Shown here: positions 8,235 to 48,706 of the stretch, one piece after another
Position numbering within the stretch: the stretch's first letter is position 1
Layout: every line of letters starts with the position of its first letter
Made by a program: the position numbers and the translations under genes
From: an uncultured SAR116 cluster alpha proteobacterium
GTDB taxonomy: Bacteria; Pseudomonadota; Alphaproteobacteria; Puniceispirillales; GCA-002684695
Assembly (NCBI GenBank): GCA_902612965.1
Contig: CACMFN010000004.1
Span: forward strand, 90,355 to 154,354
Direction of reading: 5' to 3'
Length of the DNA stretch: 64,000 nucleotides
Notes under the pieces: model-generated
Database searches by the model: none
Told to the model about the DNA's origin: nothing
Seen by the model: the letters and a program-made list of their open reading frames with translations, nothing else

Positions 8235-9274
8235 TAAACTGACCCGCCCATAAAGCTTGTGTCTCTTGAAATAATGCTATTAATACAACTTTCGGAGAAA
8301 ACAACATAATCTTTTATTTTGATAGATGGCATAAATTGCTGTGGTATTATCTTGGGAAACTTTTCATCAACTAGGTATGTATAATCTTTATGATATATAA
8401 GTTTTACTCCTTCATTTTCATAATACTCATGATGAAAAAAATGATAACCATATGATGCAAGCAAATGATCAAACTTTACAATTGTAGAATTTGAATGGCC
8501 TAGTTTAGTTTTAATTTTATTTACATAAAAATTTATGTTCTTTCCGTTTTCATCTATTTCCATAACTGGATTAATAAGGTAGAGCTGTTTACCTTTTTCA
8601 ATTTCAAGCTGATCTTCACCATGTATGTTAAATTTCCTATCAAAATCCCCAATTGAAGTTTTAACTTCAATCGAGCCTTTTGAAAGACTAAAATCATGCT
8701 TCCCTCTCAGTGGTCCTTTCCATGCTTTTAAAAAGTCATCCTTGGAACCCTTTAAGTTTGAAATTAATTCATCTAAAACGAAAAGTTCTCCAATGAGACC
8801 TATTTGTCCCTCTTCAGATAAGGGGAGTTTGTTATTTGAAAAAAATAATTTCCAGAGCTCAAGTGTTTGCATGAAAATTTGACTTATTCTTCTCTGGGTA
8901 TCCAGATTATTTAATCTCTGCATAATGTCATGGATTAGATTAATAAATATATTTTCATCAAAGTTTCGATTTAGTTCTACTAAAGTGCCTTTCAGGTTAT
9001 ATTGTTCAATTGTTTTAAAATTAATGCCTTTAATTCTGGGCATTACTGGTAGGATTAAATTTTCATTGTTTATAAAAACGCCTAAAGCCAGAGACCATTC
9101 TGAGGAACTTTTCTCTACATAAATTAATAGTCTTAATTTTTCATTAGCATGAGATATTTTTCTATAAGCTTTTGTTTTACCTGAGCTGATAAGATCTTGT
9201 TTTATGTTTTCTATTATAAAAGAAATATTATTTTTATTCTTCATCTTCAAATTCTTCGATATTATCAACTTCAT
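8234..9274 (-). CDS. PD-(D/E)XK motif protein (nuclease-fold)
   Basis: GELFVLDEL...GKHDFSLSKGSIEVKTS gives E...D-x8-E-x-K. The start may be the second Met (9244), which would reduce the overlap with the Z1 gene. 1-nt stop/start overlap with the AIPR gene. Confidence 0.7.
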   Translation of the reverse strand: MKLIISKNLKMKNKNNISFIIENIKQDLISSGKTKAYRKISHANEKLRLLIYVEKSSSEWSLALGVFINNENLILPVMPRIKGINFKTIEQYNLKGTLVELNRNFDENIFINLIHDIMQRLNNLDTQRRISQIFMQTLELWKLFFSNNKLPLSEEGQIGLIGELFVLDELISNLKGSKDDFLKAWKGPLRGKHDFSLSKGSIEVKTSIGDFDRKFNIHGEDQLEIEKGKQLYLINPVMEIDENGKNINFYVNKIKTKLGHSNSTIVKFDHLLASYGYHFFHHEYYENEGVKLIYHKDYTYLVDEKFPKIIPQQFMPSIKIKDYVVFSESCINSIISRDTSFMGGSV

Positions 9275-12089
9275 TAATTACATAGGAAATTCTTTCTGCA
9301 GATGTTGAATAAGGAAAACTCAAGCCATAAGTTGGTAAAACCTTAAGTTTTGAATAAGTTGACGGATCAACATCGTTTGTAATGTCTAGTAAATATATTA
9401 AAAGCAATCCTTTTTCAGCTGGTCTACAAAATCTGATCTGGTCTCTTGTAAGATCTTTAAACTTTAAATTATTTTTAAATTCTACTGGTTGCTGAATATT
9501 ATTATCCTCAGCTTCCATAATTCTCATTTTCGCTAATTCAAAATCATTTTCTGTTATATCATATTTCTTTTCATCAATTTTACTTACTAATGCTTTATTG
9601 CTAGTAGTAATCTGGTTACCAACCTCTTTGGTAAGTTTTCTGGAAAGAGGGTATATTTTTCTATTTGAAATATCTATAGGGTCAAGTTTTTTTGAATTAT
9701 TTGAAAACAGAACAACAGTCCAATCTTTTAATTCATCATGTCTTGAATGCATCTTTTTAATATATTTTAAACTAAGATCAATATTGTTATTTACAGAGAT
9801 ATCTAAATATTTAAACTTTTTAAGAAAATCAGTGACTTTTTTGGTGGGTATATTTTTATAAACATAGTCATTACCCATTATTGTTTCTGAGAAACCGCTT
9901 TTCAGATCATCAGCAAATTTTGATATTAATTCCAAATTTTGTAAATGTTCCACTATACCCTTTTTGGAAATATCGAATGTAGTAAGTTGACTTAATTCCA
10001 TACTTTGTGAAACTTTCACACTTTTGGAATGTCTTTGTTTGTTTAAAGCTGTAACAATTAAATTTCCCGGATGGCTTCTTATTCGTTGTGTATAGTCTTT
10101 TGGGGTTAAACCTCTAAGATTCATTGTTTCCATTCTATCACGCATTTCTTCATAGGCATAAGCAATATGCCCATAGTAGGAAAACAATCTACCAGTTGTA
10201 TAAATTTTACAAATATCTGCATATTTATCTCGATATCCAAACCATCTGCCCATTTGCATTAAAGTATCATACATTTTTGAGGTTCTAAGGAAATAGCTTA
10301 CCATCAATCCAGGAAGAGTTAAGCCTCTTGATAATTTCTCACCACCAATTCTTATAGAGTTTAAACCATTTGGATAGCTCTCTTCATTAATAGTATCTTT
10401 TACAGTACCATTGATCTCAAAAACATGGTTTTTTAGAGATAATATTGCATCTTCTAATTCATCTTTAATATCACCCCACTCAAATTCTAATGCTGGGATG
10501 TTATTTTTAAATTCTCTTGCAAAAATAACTTCAATTTGTTCATAAATAGGGTTTTCAATATCGTAATCTGACCGCATTACAATATCATATAAATCATTTA
10601 TATAGTTACTAACAAATTCACAAATTTGTTTTTGGACGTCAGTAAAACGAGTTACGTGAATTAACATAGTTTTATGTTCAGTTTTATCATTTCTGAGGTT
10701 TCTTATCGCAATCCCAATTATGAAAGCCAAAATTGAATCTGTTACTGAAGTAGGCAATTCTGTAATTTGATGATCTCTTTTATGTCCATCAGGCATAAAA
10801 TCTTCCCAATCACTTTTTTTGTTGTCTTCGTTCTCATCATCATCAATTAGATAAGGAGTATCATCTAAATTTATATGCCAGTCATAAACTTCTTCTTTAT
10901 CCGTACTATCATCATCATTGGTTTGATTTTTTAGACCAAAGACATGTTTAGGACCAATGTAGTTTGATGGGCGACCCAATGTCATTATAAAATTTCTAGG
11001 AAATAAATCGTTTTTGTCTGCAGTATCAGACGAACTGTCAATCAGTATATTAGCAAATGGGGTAGCTGTATAACCTACATAGGCACTTTTTTCAAAGTAG
11101 TTTAAAATTTTAACAATTTGACCATTAATCTTTGAAGCTTTATCATTTATGGCTGCAGTATTTATTGAAGCATTATCCGCTTCATCATCAATTAAAAGCA
11201 AAGGAATATTTTTAACTAACGCACCAGGTGCTGGTCCTTCCTTGCCCTCTTCATCTAACTTGGTGGGTTGTGCGAATGATTCAACCAAACTTAAAACATT
11301 TGATAAAATACTCTGATTTTTTTTAAATACACCTATAAAGTTATTTAAATTATTTCGGTTTCGATTATTAAAACTATAATCACCTTTTTCCATTCTAGTT
11401 GTGGCCAACTGGAAATCAGGTATTTCATAGCCAGGCAATTTCCCAACACCACATCTCAAACTTGTATAAGATTGGTTATCAATATTTATACCTGTATTTC
11501 TTCCGGTAATACCCTCTTCAACTCTTTGCTGAGTTTGACCACGCAGATTATTATGCATACCTGATAAAATAAAAACAGCTTTGTAACCGGCATCTAAAGC
11601 TCTATTTGCTAAAGCTATATAATGTGTTGTTTTCCCTGATTGAACATCTCCTACTACTAACCCTCTATTATCCCATCTACCATCACGCTCCGGATCTTCT
11701 AAATTTGATAAAACTCTATCTGTTGATTTATCAATCTCATTTATTTGGTCTGATGATAACTGATTTGACAGTAACTTTTTGATAGCTTTCCATCTAGGTT
11801 TGTCTCGAAGTTGTTTTCTTTTCTCTCCCAGCCATTCAATATGCTGGTATGGTGCTGATATAATAATGCTTTCTGTTGTCTCTACTGAAAGTGTAGAATG
11901 TAATCTTTGAATAATAATATCAGGATTAATTTCGTAATTATTGTCACTATTAAGAGCTTTAAATGTATCAATAATTGTATTAACGACCTTAGAAATGGTT
12001 TTTTCATCTGGCACAGGACTTATCGGCTGAAGTAATCCCATGCACTGTTCAAAAATATTATTTTCTACATCTTTTTGTTTAAATTTCAT
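9234..12089 (-). CDS. Z1 domain protein (P-loop helicase-like N-terminal half plus Z1 domain)
   Basis: Walker A GDVQSGKTTHY, DEAD-like LLLIDDEADNASINT, GYTATPFAN, and the Z1 signature RGLTLPGLMVSYFLRTSKMYDTLMQMGRWFGYR. Confidence 0.85.
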   Translation of the reverse strand: MKFKQKDVENNIFEQCMGLLQPISPVPDEKTISKVVNTIIDTFKALNSDNNYEINPDIIIQRLHSTLSVETTESIIISAPYQHIEWLGEKRKQLRDKPRWKAIKKLLSNQLSSDQINEIDKSTDRVLSNLEDPERDGRWDNRGLVVGDVQSGKTTHYIALANRALDAGYKAVFILSGMHNNLRGQTQQRVEEGITGRNTGINIDNQSYTSLRCGVGKLPGYEIPDFQLATTRMEKGDYSFNNRNRNNLNNFIGVFKKNQSILSNVLSLVESFAQPTKLDEEGKEGPAPGALVKNIPLLLIDDEADNASINTAAINDKASKINGQIVKILNYFEKSAYVGYTATPFANILIDSSSDTADKNDLFPRNFIMTLGRPSNYIGPKHVFGLKNQTNDDDSTDKEEVYDWHINLDDTPYLIDDDENEDNKKSDWEDFMPDGHKRDHQITELPTSVTDSILAFIIGIAIRNLRNDKTEHKTMLIHVTRFTDVQKQICEFVSNYINDLYDIVMRSDYDIENPIYEQIEVIFAREFKNNIPALEFEWGDIKDELEDAILSLKNHVFEINGTVKDTINEESYPNGLNSIRIGGEKLSRGLTLPGLMVSYFLRTSKMYDTLMQMGRWFGYRDKYADICKIYTTGRLFSYYGHIAYAYEEMRDRMETMNLRGLTPKDYTQRIRSHPGNLIVTALNKQRHSKSVKVSQSMELSQLTTFDISKKGIVEHLQNLELISKFADDLKSGFSETIMGNDYVYKNIPTKKVTDFLKKFKYLDISVNNNIDLSLKYIKKMHSRHDELKDWTVVLFSNNSKKLDPIDISNRKIYPLSRKLTKEVGNQITTSNKALVSKIDEKKYDITENDFELAKMRIMEAEDNNIQQPVEFKNNLKFKDLTRDQIRFCRPAEKGLLLIYLLDITNDVDPSTYSKLKVLPTYGLSFPYSTSAERISYVINEVDNIEEFEDEE

Positions 12090-23490: not shown

Positions 23491-25782
23491 CTATACCAAC
23501 CTTTTCTCTGATATGTAATACCCAGTATTATTTCTTCTGATTAAATAATCTGAATTGTTTGCAATACCTCTCATTCTAGCATTGAACCTTTTTTGCGGTG
23601 GAATAAAATGTTTCGGATAATTATCCTCGACCCATGAACAACAATCACTATACGCATTTTTAAAACTGTAATTGTAATTCTTTTTTATATTTTCTTCAAA
23701 ATCTCCCCTGTCAAACCATTCAAGTATTACATCAGCCTCTTTAAACCATTCTTCAGTCGCATCAGAAACTACAGAGGGTATATCATATCCACCATTTTGA
23801 ATCACCTGCTCTAAACCCCTAACAGACAATGCAAGAAAAACATTACTTTCTTCATTTAGGATCTTATCAGCAATCATCGGTATCTGTTCATTGCTTGGGA
23901 TACTTCTTTTGAAGGGTATAACATTCATCCTTCTCTCTATGCCAGCATCTACACCATCAATGAAATTGGGGAGTTCATTAGCAGCAAACAGATGAATAGC
24001 TGTCGGGTTAAAGTTAAAAACATGTTTATAAATAATTTTAGCTGTAACTGTTTCACCTGTTATTACAGCTTTCATCTTATCTGATGTGATGGCCTGCGAT
24101 CCTGATAATTCGTCTGTTATATTTATGCTTTTCCCTGAGAGATCAGCAAGATATTGTTCTTTATTCAGGTTACCAGGCGGAATTGATGTAGAAGCTGTCT
24201 TAGGTAGGAAAAGTTTCAGAAGTTTTAAAAATTGAGACTTTCCATTCATGGCTGTAGGTCCATATAAAACAAAAGCTTTCGGGGAAGATAATCGGGTTGA
24301 ATAACTAGAACAGGCAACACCCGATATTTGAAACAAAAGTTTGATAAGCCTTTCCTTGAAAAGTTCATCTTTAAAACAGCCATCCAGAAATATTTTCAAA
24401 AAGCCATCTATACATAGGTTCTGATCAGGTTGCCATGTAGATTGAATTGTATGTCTTTGCCGATGAAGATGGTGATGTTCAAGCAAAGAGATAGAAGGCT
24501 TGTCTGTAACTTTAATGAAACCAGAAAGACAATTAATTCCAACTAAGCTCTCACTGAAGAAACCGGGTCTGGCACATATTGAAGATAGCTCATTTATAAC
24601 TCCGTCTATAAAATTTTTATTTGATATAATAAATTTCTTTTTTTGAAATTGAAGACCATCCAGATCCTGGACCCATTTTCTGCATATATGATCTTCACAT
24701 TTTTCCCAATGTGTTTTGTTATATGTCCAGAAAAAACCTTCATCAAACACAAGCGGAGGTTTATTGAATTCTTTTCGGGCTTTTATATATTTGGCAATTT
24801 CGGTATGAGATCCTCTCGTTATTATAAAATCAGATTGACCGTTCCATCCAGCATCTCTTGCTTTTATGAAAATCGTTTCAATTGATATTCTATCAGGTTT
24901 GAAAGTATTCCATTTCGAAAGAACATCCTCTTTCCCCTTAAAATTATAAGGAACGCTTCCATCAGATCGTTTTTCTGACCATGACATGAAAATTTCAAAA
25001 GCTTTATCACTTTTTGTCGATTTCAAGGCCATCCCTACATAAATCCATTGATTATAGTCTTGAGGATCAAGAAATTTTAATGGATCAGCAATATTTTCAA
25101 GAATTTTATCATTCGTGTCATTACATGTTGGCTTATAGGTTTTATTTTCAAATATATTTTTTCGGGAAACAGGCTTTCCAAAAAATGAGAAGATCTTTTT
25201 TTCACTAACTTGTCTAAGGTAATCGACCTGTTTCATATTTATGGGAGGCAGATCTTCAATATTCATATCCATAATATTATCATCTGCCCATATATAATTT
25301 TTTCCTGTCTTGGGATGGATACCCGAGATTACAGCCTGATTGCCTTTTGAGAGAAACTCGACTTGGTTTTTTTCATCACCGTCCATATAGGTTTCTGTTG
25401 ATGACTTGCTAAATGTTTTACCCTCTACTCTGAAAAACAATGCTGCTTTTGGGCTTTGCCCAATTCTCATAGGTGCATGCCCAAAATTATCTTTTATAAA
25501 TTTTATTACTTCAAAACTGAGATCTTTATTCATGATATCAATGTCAATTACACAAACTCTGCCAAGAAGAATTCCAATGCCATGCTGTCTGTGATCTTTG
25601 ATAAGTTTTTGGTATTGATCTTGATCTATTTTATCGAATTTAGTCCATCCTTTAACAGCTGGTCTTTTCTGCTTCTCAAGAATAGGTATGGGATAAAAGC
25701 CGTTATCCAGAAGTCTTTCTGCATATTCATGAAAATATTGGGGATTAGTCATTGCTCTTCTCCATATATTGAAACCATTCAT
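23491..25782 (-). CDS. Bifunctional primase-polymerase / D5-P4-type replicative helicase
   Basis: N-terminal PrimPol signature LLDNGFYPIPILEKQKRPAVKGW...HGIGILLGRVCVIDIDI. Central Walker A LYGPTAMNGKSQFLKLL. Overall architecture of phage/plasmid primases of the P4 family. Confidence 0.88.
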   Translation of the reverse strand: MNGFNIWRRAMTNPQYFHEYAERLLDNGFYPIPILEKQKRPAVKGWTKFDKIDQDQYQKLIKDHRQHGIGILLGRVCVIDIDIMNKDLSFEVIKFIKDNFGHAPMRIGQSPKAALFFRVEGKTFSKSSTETYMDGDEKNQVEFLSKGNQAVISGIHPKTGKNYIWADDNIMDMNIEDLPPINMKQVDYLRQVSEKKIFSFFGKPVSRKNIFENKTYKPTCNDTNDKILENIADPLKFLDPQDYNQWIYVGMALKSTKSDKAFEIFMSWSEKRSDGSVPYNFKGKEDVLSKWNTFKPDRISIETIFIKARDAGWNGQSDFIITRGSHTEIAKYIKARKEFNKPPLVFDEGFFWTYNKTHWEKCEDHICRKWVQDLDGLQFQKKKFIISNKNFIDGVINELSSICARPGFFSESLVGINCLSGFIKVTDKPSISLLEHHHLHRQRHTIQSTWQPDQNLCIDGFLKIFLDGCFKDELFKERLIKLLFQISGVACSSYSTRLSSPKAFVLYGPTAMNGKSQFLKLLKLFLPKTASTSIPPGNLNKEQYLADLSGKSINITDELSGSQAITSDKMKAVITGETVTAKIIYKHVFNFNPTAIHLFAANELPNFIDGVDAGIERRMNVIPFKRSIPSNEQIPMIADKILNEESNVFLALSVRGLEQVIQNGGYDIPSVVSDATEEWFKEADVILEWFDRGDFEENIKKNYNYSFKNAYSDCCSWVEDNYPKHFIPPQKRFNARMRGIANNSDYLIRRNNTGYYISEKRLV

Positions 25783-26274: not shown

Positions 26275-26350
26275 TGGTGCCCAGGGGCGGATTTGAACCA
26301 CCGACACGAGGATTTTCAGTCCACTGCTCTACCGACTGAGCTACCTGGGC
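26275..26350 (-). tRNA. tRNA-Phe (anticodon GAA), CCA encoded
   Basis: The reverse complement GCCCAGGTAGCTCAGTCGGTAGAGCAGTGGACTGAAAATCCTCGTGTCGGTGGTTCAAATCCGCCCCTGGGCACCA folds as a cloverleaf. It is close to E. coli tRNA-Phe. There is one U-U mismatch in the anticodon stem. Confidence 0.95.
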
Positions 26351-30148: not shown

Positions 30149-31408
30149 TTAATTTGTTATTCGTACTATGTTGGCTCCACAATCTTGGAATTTCTGTTCA
30201 ATTTGCTCATAGCCTCTATCAAGGTGGTAAATTCTTGATATATAACTCTCACCTTCTGCTCTTAAAGCCGCGATTATTAAAGATATAGATGCTCTTAAAT
30301 CAGTTGCCATTATTTGAGCTCCTTTTAAGTTTTGAACACCAGAAACTTTTGCGACACCACCATTGACTGAAATATTAGCACCCATTCTCAAAAGTTCTGG
30401 AACATGCATAAATCTATTTTCAAAAATATTTTCAATTATTTCTGAATTCCCATTAGCGACGGTCATTAAAGTCATAAATTGTGCTTGTAAATCTGTTGGA
30501 AAATCAGGATATTCTGATGTTTGGACATTTACAGGTTTTAATATACCATCAGATGTAATTTTAATTATATCCTTATCACTTTCCCAATTTACACCTGCAT
30601 TAATTAGTTTTTTGGATAAGCTCTTAAGATGTTTTGGCTCACAATTACATAATTCTAATGAACTCTTTGTAATTGCCGCAGCAATTGCAAAACTTCCAGC
30701 TTCAATTCTATCAGGTATAACTTTATGATTGCATCCCTCTAATTCTTTAACTCCTTCTATGATGATTTCGCCACTACCAGCACCTTTTATTGATGCACCC
30801 ATTCTTATGAGGCAATTTGCCAAATCAATAATTTCTGGCTCTTTTGCTGCATTTAGAATTCTTGTTCTTCCATTTGCTAATGATGCTGCCATAATTACAT
30901 TTTCAGTTGCTCCAACTGAAATTTTTGGGAAGCTTATATCTGCCCCATAAAGCCCTTTTTTTGGTGCTTTTGCCTCTATGTAACCATCTTTAAGTAAGAT
31001 GCTAGCACCCATTTGTTCAAATGCATTAATATGTAAATCAACAGGCCTCGTTCCGATGGAGCATCCCCCAGGGAGACTTACTTTGGCTATTCGATACTTA
31101 GCTAATAAAGGACCTAAAACAAGAATAGATGCCCTCATTTTTCTAACTATATCATATTCTGCAATATATGTTTTAGGTTCTCCAGAAATATATGCAATAT
31201 TATTTTCAATCCTTGATTTCATCCCAAGACTTGAAAGTAGAATGCTCATAAATCTTGTATCTGCTAAATTTGGCATAGAATCTAATTTGAGCTCCCCTTT
31301 GCTTAAAAGTAAACTACAGGCCATTAGTGGGAGAGCAGAGTTTTTTGCACCACTGATTTTAATTTTGCCTTTTAATTTAGCCCCACCTATAACTTTCAAG
31401 CTATCCAT
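30149..31408 (-). CDS. murA: UDP-N-acetylglucosamine 1-carboxyvinyltransferase
   Basis: KISGAKNSALPLMA, LPGGCSIGTRPVDLH (active-site Cys loop), 419 aa. Confidence 0.97.
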   Translation of the reverse strand: MDSLKVIGGAKLKGKIKISGAKNSALPLMACSLLLSKGELKLDSMPNLADTRFMSILLSSLGMKSRIENNIAYISGEPKTYIAEYDIVRKMRASILVLGPLLAKYRIAKVSLPGGCSIGTRPVDLHINAFEQMGASILLKDGYIEAKAPKKGLYGADISFPKISVGATENVIMAASLANGRTRILNAAKEPEIIDLANCLIRMGASIKGAGSGEIIIEGVKELEGCNHKVIPDRIEAGSFAIAAAITKSSLELCNCEPKHLKSLSKKLINAGVNWESDKDIIKITSDGILKPVNVQTSEYPDFPTDLQAQFMTLMTVANGNSEIIENIFENRFMHVPELLRMGANISVNGGVAKVSGVQNLKGAQIMATDLRASISLIIAALRAEGESYISRIYHLDRGYEQIEQKFQDCGANIVRITN

Positions 31409-31421
31409 ATACTATTCTTTC

Positions 31422-31580
31422 TTAATTTGAACCTTTTTCCTTATTTAATAAGGACGAGACACCTATATTTTTTTTTCTATATCTGTTTGCATTTTCGCCT
31501 GCTTCTCTTTTTTGTTGTTTTCTCTTAAGTAAATTGTTTCTTAATGCATTAGCTAATTGTTTTTCTTTTTTTGTTTTCAT
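31422..31580 (-). CDS. Possible small basic protein (52 aa), below the ORF-track cutoff
   Basis: My own translation is MKTKKEKQLANALRNNLLKRKQQKREAGENANRYRKKNIGVSSLLNKEKGSN. It ends 13 nt upstream of murA on the same strand. Confidence 0.3.
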   Translation of the reverse strand: MKTKKEKQLANALRNNLLKRKQQKREAGENANRYRKKNIGVSSLLNKEKGSN

Positions 31581-31704
31581 AATGATCCTTTTAAACAAAA
31601 TTACAAAAAAAATAAATTAGATTAATTTGTCAAATTTAAGACTTTTCTGGATTAAAAAAATATTTATTGATTATAATATATATATTTGTTTATTGTAAAT
31701 TTGT

Positions 31705-31975
31705 GCTGCACTAGCTCAGGGGTAGAGCACTCCCTTGGTAAAAATTTGCCTCTCTTAGGTGAAAACTTAAGATGAAAAGCTCTCAAATTCGGGGAAAGCT
31801 AAGGATTAATTCTAAGCCAATCCCGAGCCAAGCCAATGAGGAAGGTGTAGAGACTGAACGGGAGCAGCCTAAGGAACTTTTCTAAGGCTAAGAGACAGTC
31901 CACTTCTCTTAAATTTCGAAAGAAAAATGAGGAGGAAGGGAGAGGTCACTGGTTCAATTCCAGTGTGCAGCACCA
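31705..31975 (+). tRNA. tRNA-Thr (anticodon GGU) interrupted by a group I intron; exons 31705-31739 and 31936-31975
   Basis: The joined exons read GCTGCACTAGCTCAGGGGTAGAGCACTCCCTTGGT|AAGGGAGAGGTCACTGGTTCAATTCCAGTGTGCAGCACCA. This is a 75-nt perfect cloverleaf, very close to E. coli tRNA-Thr(GGU). Confidence 0.9.
31740..31935 (+). ncRNA. Group I self-splicing intron (Azoarcus-like, IC3-type), 196 nt, no ORF
   Basis: The 5' exon ends in U and the intron ends in G. The IGS candidate GCC (31748-31750) can pair with exon GGU. The P2 hairpin is TCTTAGG-TGAAAA-CTTAAGA (31753-31772). Core blocks TCAAATTCGGGGAAAGCTAAGG (31783-31804), CCCGAGCCAAGCC (31822-31834), GAAGGTGTAGAGACTGAACGG (31841-31862) and CCTAAGG parallel the Azoarcus tRNA-Ile intron. 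A GAAA tetraloop hairpin lies at 31914-31925. Confidence 0.85.
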
Positions 31976-32138: not shown

Positions 32139-33104
32139 ATGCCAAAAAGTTTTCAACCAATTTCAGGTTTTGAGCTTCCCAGATTTGCAGGAGTTCCAAC
32201 CTTTATGCGACTACCACACGTTTCTCTTGATGATTCAGACATTGATAAAGTTCAGATTGGTTTAATTGGAACACCATGGGATACAGGTACTACAAATAGA
32301 CCTGGACCAAGACATGGGCCACGTCAGTTGAGAGATTACTCAACGATGATAAGAGCACAAAATAGTCATACAGACATAAGACCTTTTGAACTAGTAAATT
32401 GCGCAGATTTGGGAGATGTTGGTCCCAATCCAGCAGATATCAATGATACAATGGATAGGATGTCTAAGTTTTTCAAGAAAGTGAAATCATTAGGTATATT
32501 ACCGTTAACAGGAGGTGGTGACCACTTATGTTCTTTACCAATTCTAAGAGGAATTGCATCTGATAATCCTGTTGGGATGATCCATTTTGACAGTCACACA
32601 GATCTATTTAATAGCTACTTTGGTGGTACAATGTATACCCACGGAACTCCATTCAGAAGGGCTTTAGAAGAGGGACTTTTAGATCCAAAAAGAGTTATTC
32701 AGATTGGTATTAGAGGGACAGCTTACGATAAAGAAGATCATGAGTTTGCAAAATCTGTTGGTGTAAAAATCATCAAGATTGAAGAATTTTTTGAGCGTGG
32801 CATTAAGGATGTTATGATTGAAGCAAGAGACATTGTTGGAAATAAGCCTACTTATGTTTCTTATGATATAGACTTTGTTGACCCAACCTTTGCACCGGGA
32901 ACTGGTACACCTGAAGTAGGTGGTCCTAACTCATTTCAGGCTATTCAGGTCGTTAGAGAATTAGATGGTGTTGATATCATTGGCGCTGATCTTGTTGAAG
33001 TCTCGCCCCCTTTTGATCCTAATGGTGGAACTGCTTGGTTAGGGGTATCTATTATGTTTGAATTATTATGTATTATGGCGAAAAATATTAGTGATAAAAA
33101 TTAA
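32139..33104 (+). CDS. Agmatinase / guanidino-acid hydrolase (ureohydrolase family)
   Basis: LTGGGDH, HFDSHTD, SYDIDFVDP, GTGTPEVGG and DLVEVSPPFD. The sequence resembles both SpeB-type and GbuA-type enzymes, so the substrate is not assignable. Confidence 0.9.
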   Translation: MPKSFQPISGFELPRFAGVPTFMRLPHVSLDDSDIDKVQIGLIGTPWDTGTTNRPGPRHGPRQLRDYSTMIRAQNSHTDIRPFELVNCADLGDVGPNPADINDTMDRMSKFFKKVKSLGILPLTGGGDHLCSLPILRGIASDNPVGMIHFDSHTDLFNSYFGGTMYTHGTPFRRALEEGLLDPKRVIQIGIRGTAYDKEDHEFAKSVGVKIIKIEEFFERGIKDVMIEARDIVGNKPTYVSYDIDFVDPTFAPGTGTPEVGGPNSFQAIQVVRELDGVDIIGADLVEVSPPFDPNGGTAWLGVSIMFELLCIMAKNISDKN

Positions 33105-48630: not shown

Positions 48631-48706
48631 GGCCCTATAGTTGAACTGGATACAACGCAGGATTCCTAATCCTGAGCTCGAGGTTCGAGTCCTCGTAGGG
48701 TCACCA
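48631..48706 (+). tRNA. tRNA-Arg (anticodon CCU), intron-less, CCA encoded
   Basis: GGCCCTATAGTTGAACTGGATACAACGCAGGATTCCTAATCCTGAGCTCGAGGTTCGAGTCCTCGTAGGGTCACCA folds as a cloverleaf with anticodon loop TTCCTAA. Confidence 0.9.

Follow-up and report, generated by a model that had tools for sequence, protein, structure and literature searches.

The split tRNA-Thr gene and its neighbors

The analyzed DNA (64 kb, 31% GC; hereafter the window) carries on its plus strand a tRNA-Thr(GGU) gene whose two exons are separated by an ORF-less group I intron of the IC3 type (31740-31935, 196 nt, 41% GC). The 5' exon (31705-31739, 35 nt) comprises the 5' strand of the acceptor stem, the D arm, the 5' strand of the anticodon stem (CUCCC, 31731-31735), U32, U33 and the anticodon G34 G35 U36 (31737-31739), and reads by elements GCUGCAC-UA-GCUC-AGGGGUA-GAGC-A-CUCCC-UU-GGU. 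The 3' exon (31936-31975) continues with A37 and A38, the 3' strand of the anticodon stem (GGGAG, 31938-31942), the variable loop, the T arm, the 3' strand of the acceptor stem, A73 and a gene-encoded CCA end (31973-31975), and reads AA-GGGAG-AGGUC-ACUGG-UUCAAUU-CCAGU-GUGCAGC-A-CCA. The T arm, ACUGGUUCAAUUCCAGU, is specific to this tRNA, and the predicted junction of the ligated exons is CUCCCUUGGU followed by AAGGGAG.

When introns were allowed, ARAGORN reported a tRNA-Thr(ggt) with a 196-nt intron at the same boundaries that had been read by eye, immediately 3' of nucleotide 36, and the joined exons gave a canonical 75-nt tRNA-Thr(GGU) cloverleaf. These exact coordinates agree with the insert described in the initial annotation. 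With default settings, the same program did not call the split gene in the window; its only calls were tRNA-Phe (26275-26350, minus strand) and tRNA-Arg(CCU) (48631-48706), the latter being intron-less by both ARAGORN and the Rfam scan, as had been noted earlier. In E. coli, the identity set of threonyl-tRNA synthetase consists of G1-C72, C2-G71, G35 and U36, although the rules of this organism may differ. The acceptor stem GCUGCAC/GUGCAGC supplies the first two of these pairs, and the anticodon is GGU. The arms had been described as near-identical to those of E. coli tRNA-Thr, which is overstated, with blastn identity of approximately 83% over approximately 70% of the length. Codons ACU and ACC account for 316 of the 648 threonine codons in the long ORFs of the window, thus placing tRNA-Thr(GGU) in demand.

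The window has the gene content of an ordinary bacterium, and the tRNA gene is flanked by murA (30149-31408, minus strand) and by an agmatinase gene (32139-33104, plus strand). A simple consensus scan of the plus strand found no convincing sigma-70-like promoter or intrinsic terminator for tRNA-Thr. The best sigma-70-like match of the intergenic region (TTTACA-N18-TATAAT, 11/12, 31670-31699) lies on the minus strand just upstream of the tRNA-Thr 5' end and faces murA. Since this match points to murA and adjoins the tRNA, the two genes are probably transcribed divergently from a short AT-rich spacer. Immediately upstream of murA there is a small and very basic ORF of about 52-58 amino acids (31422-31598, minus strand) with the motif ALR-NLLKRKQQKR-AG-N-RYR-NIGVS. 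Its counterpart in a related contig is found at L001:3836-4000, and it is conserved at 75% MurA identity; a Pfam search returned no match for it.

Two further observations concern the wider surroundings. Directly beyond the 3' end of tRNA-Phe lies a P4-family phage/plasmid primase gene (23491-25782, minus strand). Because an FAD-binding gene occupies this place after tRNA-Phe in the relatives L001 and L004, the arrangement suggests that tRNA-Phe served as the integration site of a genomic island; no delimiting direct repeat of tRNA-Phe of at least 12 nt was found in the window. A 951-aa protein (9234-12089, minus strand) matches the NCBIfam model MzaC, the Z1-domain protein of the MZA anti-phage system, with E=3e-169 and a score below the curated cutoff, and is probably part of a defence cluster within this putative island.

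Architecture of the intron

The Rfam model Intron_gpI (RF00028) matches positions 31714-31924 over its full length with 67.9 bits, the gathering score being 50 (E=4.4e-15), and this is the sole group I match in the 64-kb window. The covariance-model search proposed in the initial annotation thus supports the group I intron that it placed in tRNA-Thr(GGU) at 31705-31975, and the tRNA finder run on the joined exons agrees. No ORF longer than 40 amino acids lies inside or overlaps the intron. The split gene is real and correctly placed, far beyond chance expectation.

Elements P1 to P9 were assigned by homology to the Azoarcus architecture. P1 (31737-31741/31746-31750) is formed by exon nucleotides G34 G35 U36 and intron nucleotides A1 A2 on the internal guide. 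It was initially taken for a helix of 3 bp and in fact has 5 bp, GGUAA/UUGCC, with a U36.G wobble at the 5' splice site (31739/31748). A candidate P10 would join intron nucleotides U6-U8 (31745-31747) to A37 A38 G39 of the 3' exon. P2 has 8 bp (31753-31760/31765-31772) and is capped by the GAAA tetraloop L2 (31761-31764). The 5' strand of P3 (GCUCUC, 31779-31784; 3' strand GGGAGC, 31860-31865) is followed by J3/4 AAA (31785-31787) and by P4 (31789-31793/31822-31826), after which comes J4/5 GAAA. P5 (31798-31805/31811-31817) contains a CUAAG...UAAG motif that resembles the 11-nt receptor, and P6 (CC/GG) together with a minimal P6a of 2 bp and a 5-nt loop occupies 31828-31845.

The guanosine-binding helix P7 (G-A-GACU, 31850-31855, with bulged A31851; AGUCC, 31897-31901) is pseudoknotted with P3. 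P8 (31867-31875/31881-31888) carries the second receptor-like motif, CCUAAG...UAAGG, where L2 would be expected to dock. P9 (CUUCUC, 31903-31908; GAGGAG, 31929-31934) encloses P9a (31914-31917/31922-31925), whose cap is the GAAA tetraloop L9 (31918-31921), and directly abuts the last intron nucleotide, omegaG (31935). The intron is therefore of a compact build that lacks a P5abc extension, with two GAAA tetraloops, where a single one had been counted before, and with the two CUAAG receptor-like helices of the initial annotation now placed in P5 and P8. By analogy with the Azoarcus structure, L2 would dock into P8 and L9 into P5. The noted boundary rule of an exon U and a terminal intron G, U(-1)/omegaG, is obeyed by all 78 collected pre-tRNAs, with G as the last intron nucleotide in 78/78 homologues.

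Covariation among homologous introns

The secondary structure is supported by covariation among 68 homologues. In a MAFFT alignment of 68 distinct introns, 87.5% of cells were paired under the P1-P9 model, compared to 32-55% when partners were slid by 1-3 columns. Double-sided changes occurred at 32 pairs, and none of 500 shuffles reached any of the observed measures. Four pairs of P1 were nearly constant (GC and GC in 68/68 each, UG and AU in 67/68 each). The P2 hairpin of the initial annotation has double-sided compensatory changes at all 8 pairs, and it also shows compensatory switches within the marine clade. P3 is 99.8% paired with compensatory changes at 4 of its 6 pairs, P6 and P6a reach 100% pairing and show compensatory changes as well, and P7 is 100% paired with a CG/UA switch at one pair (45:23). 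P5 covaries (CG/GC, 38:28), as does P8 (AU/GU/GC and CG/UA). P4 is 100% paired and invariant in 68/68 introns, an invariance partly forced by the search pattern.

P9 scored poorly in this alignment because MAFFT mis-registers the helix across lineages. A clade-only alignment was made of 17 distinct sequences from 23 marine contigs, and in it the UA/CG switch at pair 168/191 (5:12) supports the 6-bp register of P9. Pairs 66/72 in P5 (AU/UA, 11:5) and 128/149 in P8 (GC/AU, 11:5) also switch within the clade. An alternative P9 register of 4 bp, which would leave a tail of 3 nt ahead of omegaG like that of other lineages, breaks in contig L001 and was discarded. RNAalifold, given no structure, recovered P1, P2, P3, P4, P5, P6a, P8 and the L9 hairpin, while the single-sequence minimum free energy fold contains P2, P3, P4, P5, P6a, P8 and P9a with a z-score of only -2.0.

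The receptor-like motifs show a pattern of their own in the marine clade. Where the 11-nt receptor in its canonical form (UAUGG) has a bulged U, any of the four nucleotides (A, U, G or C) is found in the clade, and the rest of the P5/P8 motif is fixed. The window intron has UAAG in both helices (31798-31817 and 31867-31888).

Synteny and fixation in marine relatives

The MurA protein of the window is 97-98% identical to marine metagenome proteins and 75% identical to that of a 'SAR116 cluster bacterium' MAG. Gene order, with agmatinase and murA on either side of a gap of approximately 700 nt, is kept in five contigs bearing MurA relatives, and each of the five gaps contains an Rfam group I match of 60.6-67.9 bits. 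In four of them ARAGORN reported a tRNA-Thr(ggt) with an intron of 194-196 nt at the site seen in the window; the fifth (L004) was missed by the program, and its homologous intron has 193 nt by alignment. The arrangement of agmatinase, tRNA-Thr with its intron and murA is therefore conserved down to 75% MurA identity. The contig CAZNBI010000077.1 of a GTDB species representative (L067) shares 96.4% identity with the window across 5.6 kb.

Contigs of the JGI metagenome collection contain no copy of the spliced junction combined with the T arm and acceptor of the window tRNA, and 18 of them have the intron 3' end joined to the exact same exon. Vertical inheritance and fixation of the intron in this lineage are, in our assessment, very well supported as part of the overall explanation.

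Two other accounts of this conservation were considered. The locus could be a decaying relic, that is, a tRNA-Thr pseudogene with an inactive intron whose codons are read by another tRNA-Thr gene, and it is in favor of such an account that tRNA-Thr genes were viewed within the 64-kb window only. However, the tRNA-Thr exons are identical between lineages that share no more than 72-80% identity in the flanking DNA, the helices evolve by compensatory change, all blocks of the catalytic core are invariant, and intron-less alleles in the metagenome collection number zero against 18 with the intron, so that decay appears extremely improbable. Alternatively, the intron could be no neutral passenger and be kept for regulatory splicing that ties the supply of tRNA-Thr(GGU), for example, to guanosine-nucleotide or Mg2+ status. 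Its fixation and vertical inheritance over deep alphaproteobacterial divergence would fit such a role, but fixation is to be expected just as much for an intron that lacks an ORF and any means of precise loss, and in cyanobacteria and plastids a pattern of this kind in the tRNA-Leu(UAA) intron is generally taken to be neutral. We regard a regulatory role as very unlikely.

Distribution across bacterial genomes

Genomes of GTDB species were scanned for a signature that combines P1 and core elements, TGGTA-N-TGCC-N-AAATTCGGGGAA, which gave at least 120 loci. In at least 72 of them, ARAGORN found a tRNA-Thr(ggt) interrupted at the same position by an intron of 193-293 nt. Two more loci (L102 and L122) are real split tRNA-Thr(GGU) genes cut off at contig ends, so that at least 74 GTDB species have the intron. 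Among the matches listed, 46 of 120, from a wide range of non-alphaproteobacterial phyla, lack an upstream tRNA exon and were rejected as chance matches to the degenerate pattern; being scattered over phyla and devoid of tRNA exons, they lend no support to a pan-bacterial class. The positives among the matches listed are named almost exclusively as Alphaproteobacteria, including Hyphomicrobiaceae, Rhodospirillales, Acetobacteraceae and Rhodobacterales, with the isolates Acuticoccus mangrovi, A. yangtzensis and Roseomonas acroporae. The survey of related genomes suggested in the initial annotation thus located the intron at the same tRNA both in the five syntenic contigs and in these species, and the tRNA-Thr(GGU) intron is common in Alphaproteobacteria.

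Two MAGs with other labels, 'Chloroflexia' (L022, on a 1.5-Mb contig) and 'Bryobacterales' (L106), contain typical alphaproteobacterial split genes of this kind. The L106 intron (228 nt) groups by its terminal sequences with those of Rhodospirillales and other Alphaproteobacteria (L035, L039, L075, L104, L114), and this match of termini and length suggests mis-binning. For L022, given its long contig, either mislabelling or transfer could be the cause.

Introns of the marine clade (193-196 nt) are the shortest among the 78 surveyed. The clade also has the second-lowest GC content at 41%, only L117 being lower (37%), and most others are at 50-72%. P6a, of 2 bp in the marine clade, is much longer in most other lineages.

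Similar introns in viral contigs

Introns of a similar kind were also seen outside tRNA genes. IMG/VR contigs represent two variants (L144, L146, L149 and L152; L145, L148, L150 and L153) of a split gene for a phage major head protein (PHROG 3437, E=3e-59), for example at L144:3400-3620 on the minus strand. Both variants are interrupted at the same codon, between SRHADTPL and V-DTPHSRR, by IC3-like group I introns of 206-208 nt with Rfam scores of 51-54 bits. As in tRNA-Thr(GGU), the 5' exon ends with UUGGU and the guide is UGCC, a likeness in P1 that was imposed by the search pattern. These introns are 73-75% identical to some of the alphaproteobacterial tRNA-Thr introns. A third viral group I intron (L151:2105-2301, 68.7 bits) interrupts a hydrophobic ORF between GUUGGU and A; the viral contig in question is AT-rich.

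It is conceivable, although we hold this only tentatively, that the tRNA and phage introns are exchanged by reverse splicing between UUGGU and A, and that phages seeded or spread the tRNA-Thr(GGU) intron. Co-transfer of exon sequence was considered for a 12-nt identity between the L144 5' exon and the window exon (CACTCCCTTGGT) and was rejected as a coding coincidence, since the sister variant L145 differs at the same codon.

Proposed splicing mechanism

The explanation that we favor with high confidence is that a marine alphaproteobacterium of low GC content, related to SAR116, has at this locus a functional tRNA-Thr(GGU) gene split by an ORF-less IC3 ribozyme of the Thr.5Ug class that is vertically inherited and fixed. 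From homology to the pre-tRNA introns of Azoarcus and Anabaena, we infer on good grounds that the intron is self-splicing, and the cell would depend on this reaction for its mature tRNA if it had no other tRNA-Thr(GGU) gene; a second one of divergent sequence may lie elsewhere in the genome, beyond the 64 kb. A tRNA-Thr(UGU), were it to carry cmo5U, could also read ACU and perhaps, weakly, ACC. The guide UUGCC would pair with exon GGU and intron AA in P1, with U36.G as the wobble pair at the 5' splice site. The GAAA tetraloops would dock into receptor-like motifs, L2 into that of P8 and L9 into that of P5, and so hold the P3-P8 domain against the P4-P6 domain. Exogenous guanosine occupying P7 would then attack the bond between U36 and A1, after which omegaG (31935) would take the same P7 site. 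The AAG of the 3' exon would displace intron AAA on guide UUU to form P10, aided by the anticodon stem CUCCC/GGGAG. Finally, the free 3'-OH of U36 would attack the bond between omegaG and A37, yielding mature tRNA-Thr(GGU) and a linear intron.

A counterpoint to autonomous splicing is the reduced periphery of this AU-rich intron (41% GC), with its 2-bp P6a and a single P9 hairpin, on account of which folding unaided at physiological Mg2+ is not guaranteed. The intron might be a genuine group I ribozyme that relies in vivo on a host protein, such as an RNA chaperone or a dedicated splicing factor. Its length, the shortest of the 78 surveyed (193-196 nt in the clade versus up to 293), the low GC content compared to 50-72% in most others, the 2-bp P6a and the modest z-score of -2.0 are in line with such a dependence. 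Nevertheless, purifying selection has kept both tetraloop/receptor pairs and the entire catalytic core intact, the 205-nt Azoarcus intron of the same architecture self-splices efficiently, and neither an intron ORF nor a candidate factor in adjacent genes was seen. On balance we judge host-protein dependence unlikely and retain the self-splicing ribozyme as the preferred reading.

Implications for annotation and ribozyme studies

According to the paper that describes tRNAscan-SE 2.0, group I introns lie outside the design of the program. As standard tRNA finders miss the split gene, genomes of this abundant marine lineage will appear to be without tRNA-Thr(GGU), which reads ACC and ACU, about half of the threonine codons; recognizing the split gene corrects this annotation. 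If self-splicing holds true, the intron would be a natural IC3 ribozyme of 193-196 nt and 41% GC, smaller than the 205-nt Azoarcus model. Very compact, AU-rich and native to an organism that is mesophilic or lives in cold water, it could serve in folding studies as a complement to the G+C-rich Azoarcus intron. Otherwise, it adds one more lineage to the computationally catalogued Thr.5Ug class.

Comparison with known introns

[quoted passage not shown] The initial annotation had suggested that tRNA-Thr might be a host as yet unreported. Bacterial tRNA group I introns were extended to 21 settings by Williams (bioRxiv 2020, 10.1101/2020.01.27.920355), and the supplementary seed alignment of that preprint contains Rba53.Thr.5Ug, with P1 'ggUA..UGcc', as well as Thr.3Ug and Thr.2Ug. 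There, 'site 5' denotes insertion after nucleotide 36, as in the tRNA-Arg(CCU) and tRNA-Ile(CAU) introns, which bears out the identity of insertion sites proposed earlier for the window intron. The seed Rba53.Thr.5Ug is identical over 258/258 positions to the intron of 'Rhizobiales bacterium Ga0077537' in our survey (L118). The window intron aligns with it over all core helices, and intermediates at 67-92% identity link the window to other members. By this evidence from the preprint and its seed alignment, tRNA-Thr is not new as a host, and the window intron is a member of the already catalogued Thr.5Ug class. No splicing experiment on this class was found in the searchable literature, where, as far as these sources extend, it has been catalogued only computationally.

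With the Thr.5Ug seed, as given in that alignment, the window intron shares the host tRNA-Thr(GGU), the site after nucleotide 36, U(-1)/omegaG, P1 of the form GGU/A...UGCC, the GAAA tetraloops L2 and L9 and the same core blocks. In contrast to the 258-nt seed, introns of the marine clade are 193-196 nt long and AU-rich with a 2-bp P6a, and they bear 11-nt-receptor-like CUAAG motifs in both P5 and P8; P5 is of another form in the seed lineage. In the marine clade, P9 is a single hairpin and omegaG follows directly on its closing helix, while most other Thr.5Ug members have a 2-nt spacer at this place.

The IC3 intron of Azoarcus sp. BH72 pre-tRNA-Ile(CAU) is likewise inserted after nucleotide 36 and has the P1-P9 layout with L2/P8 and L9/P5 clamps. 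The core blocks that had been noted as similar to this intron are real by alignment, with J3/4-P4, P4'-P6 and J6/7-P7-J7/3 being near-identical and 72% identity over aligned positions. Unlike the Azoarcus intron, which is 205 nt long, G+C-rich, equipped with an 8-bp P6a and of beta-proteobacterial origin, the window intron is 9 nt shorter, 41% GC and alpha-proteobacterial, and the two differ in their host tRNAs and internal guides.

The alphaproteobacterial tRNA-Arg(CCU) intron (Agrobacterium type, 'Arg.5Ug') agrees with the window intron in class, subgroup and insertion site, and the seed Bbo3.Arg.5Ug in the same alignment is 87% identical to it over aligned positions; the host differs, however, and the window's own tRNA-Arg(CCU) has no intron. 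The cyanobacterial and plastid tRNA-Leu(UAA) intron is similar in being an ORF-less, vertically inherited IC3 intron in an anticodon loop, and its splicing is assisted by tRNA exon pairing (Zaug et al. 1993, as cited in PMC3984707). It differs from the window intron in its site between nucleotides 34 and 35 and in residing in a different tRNA and phylum.
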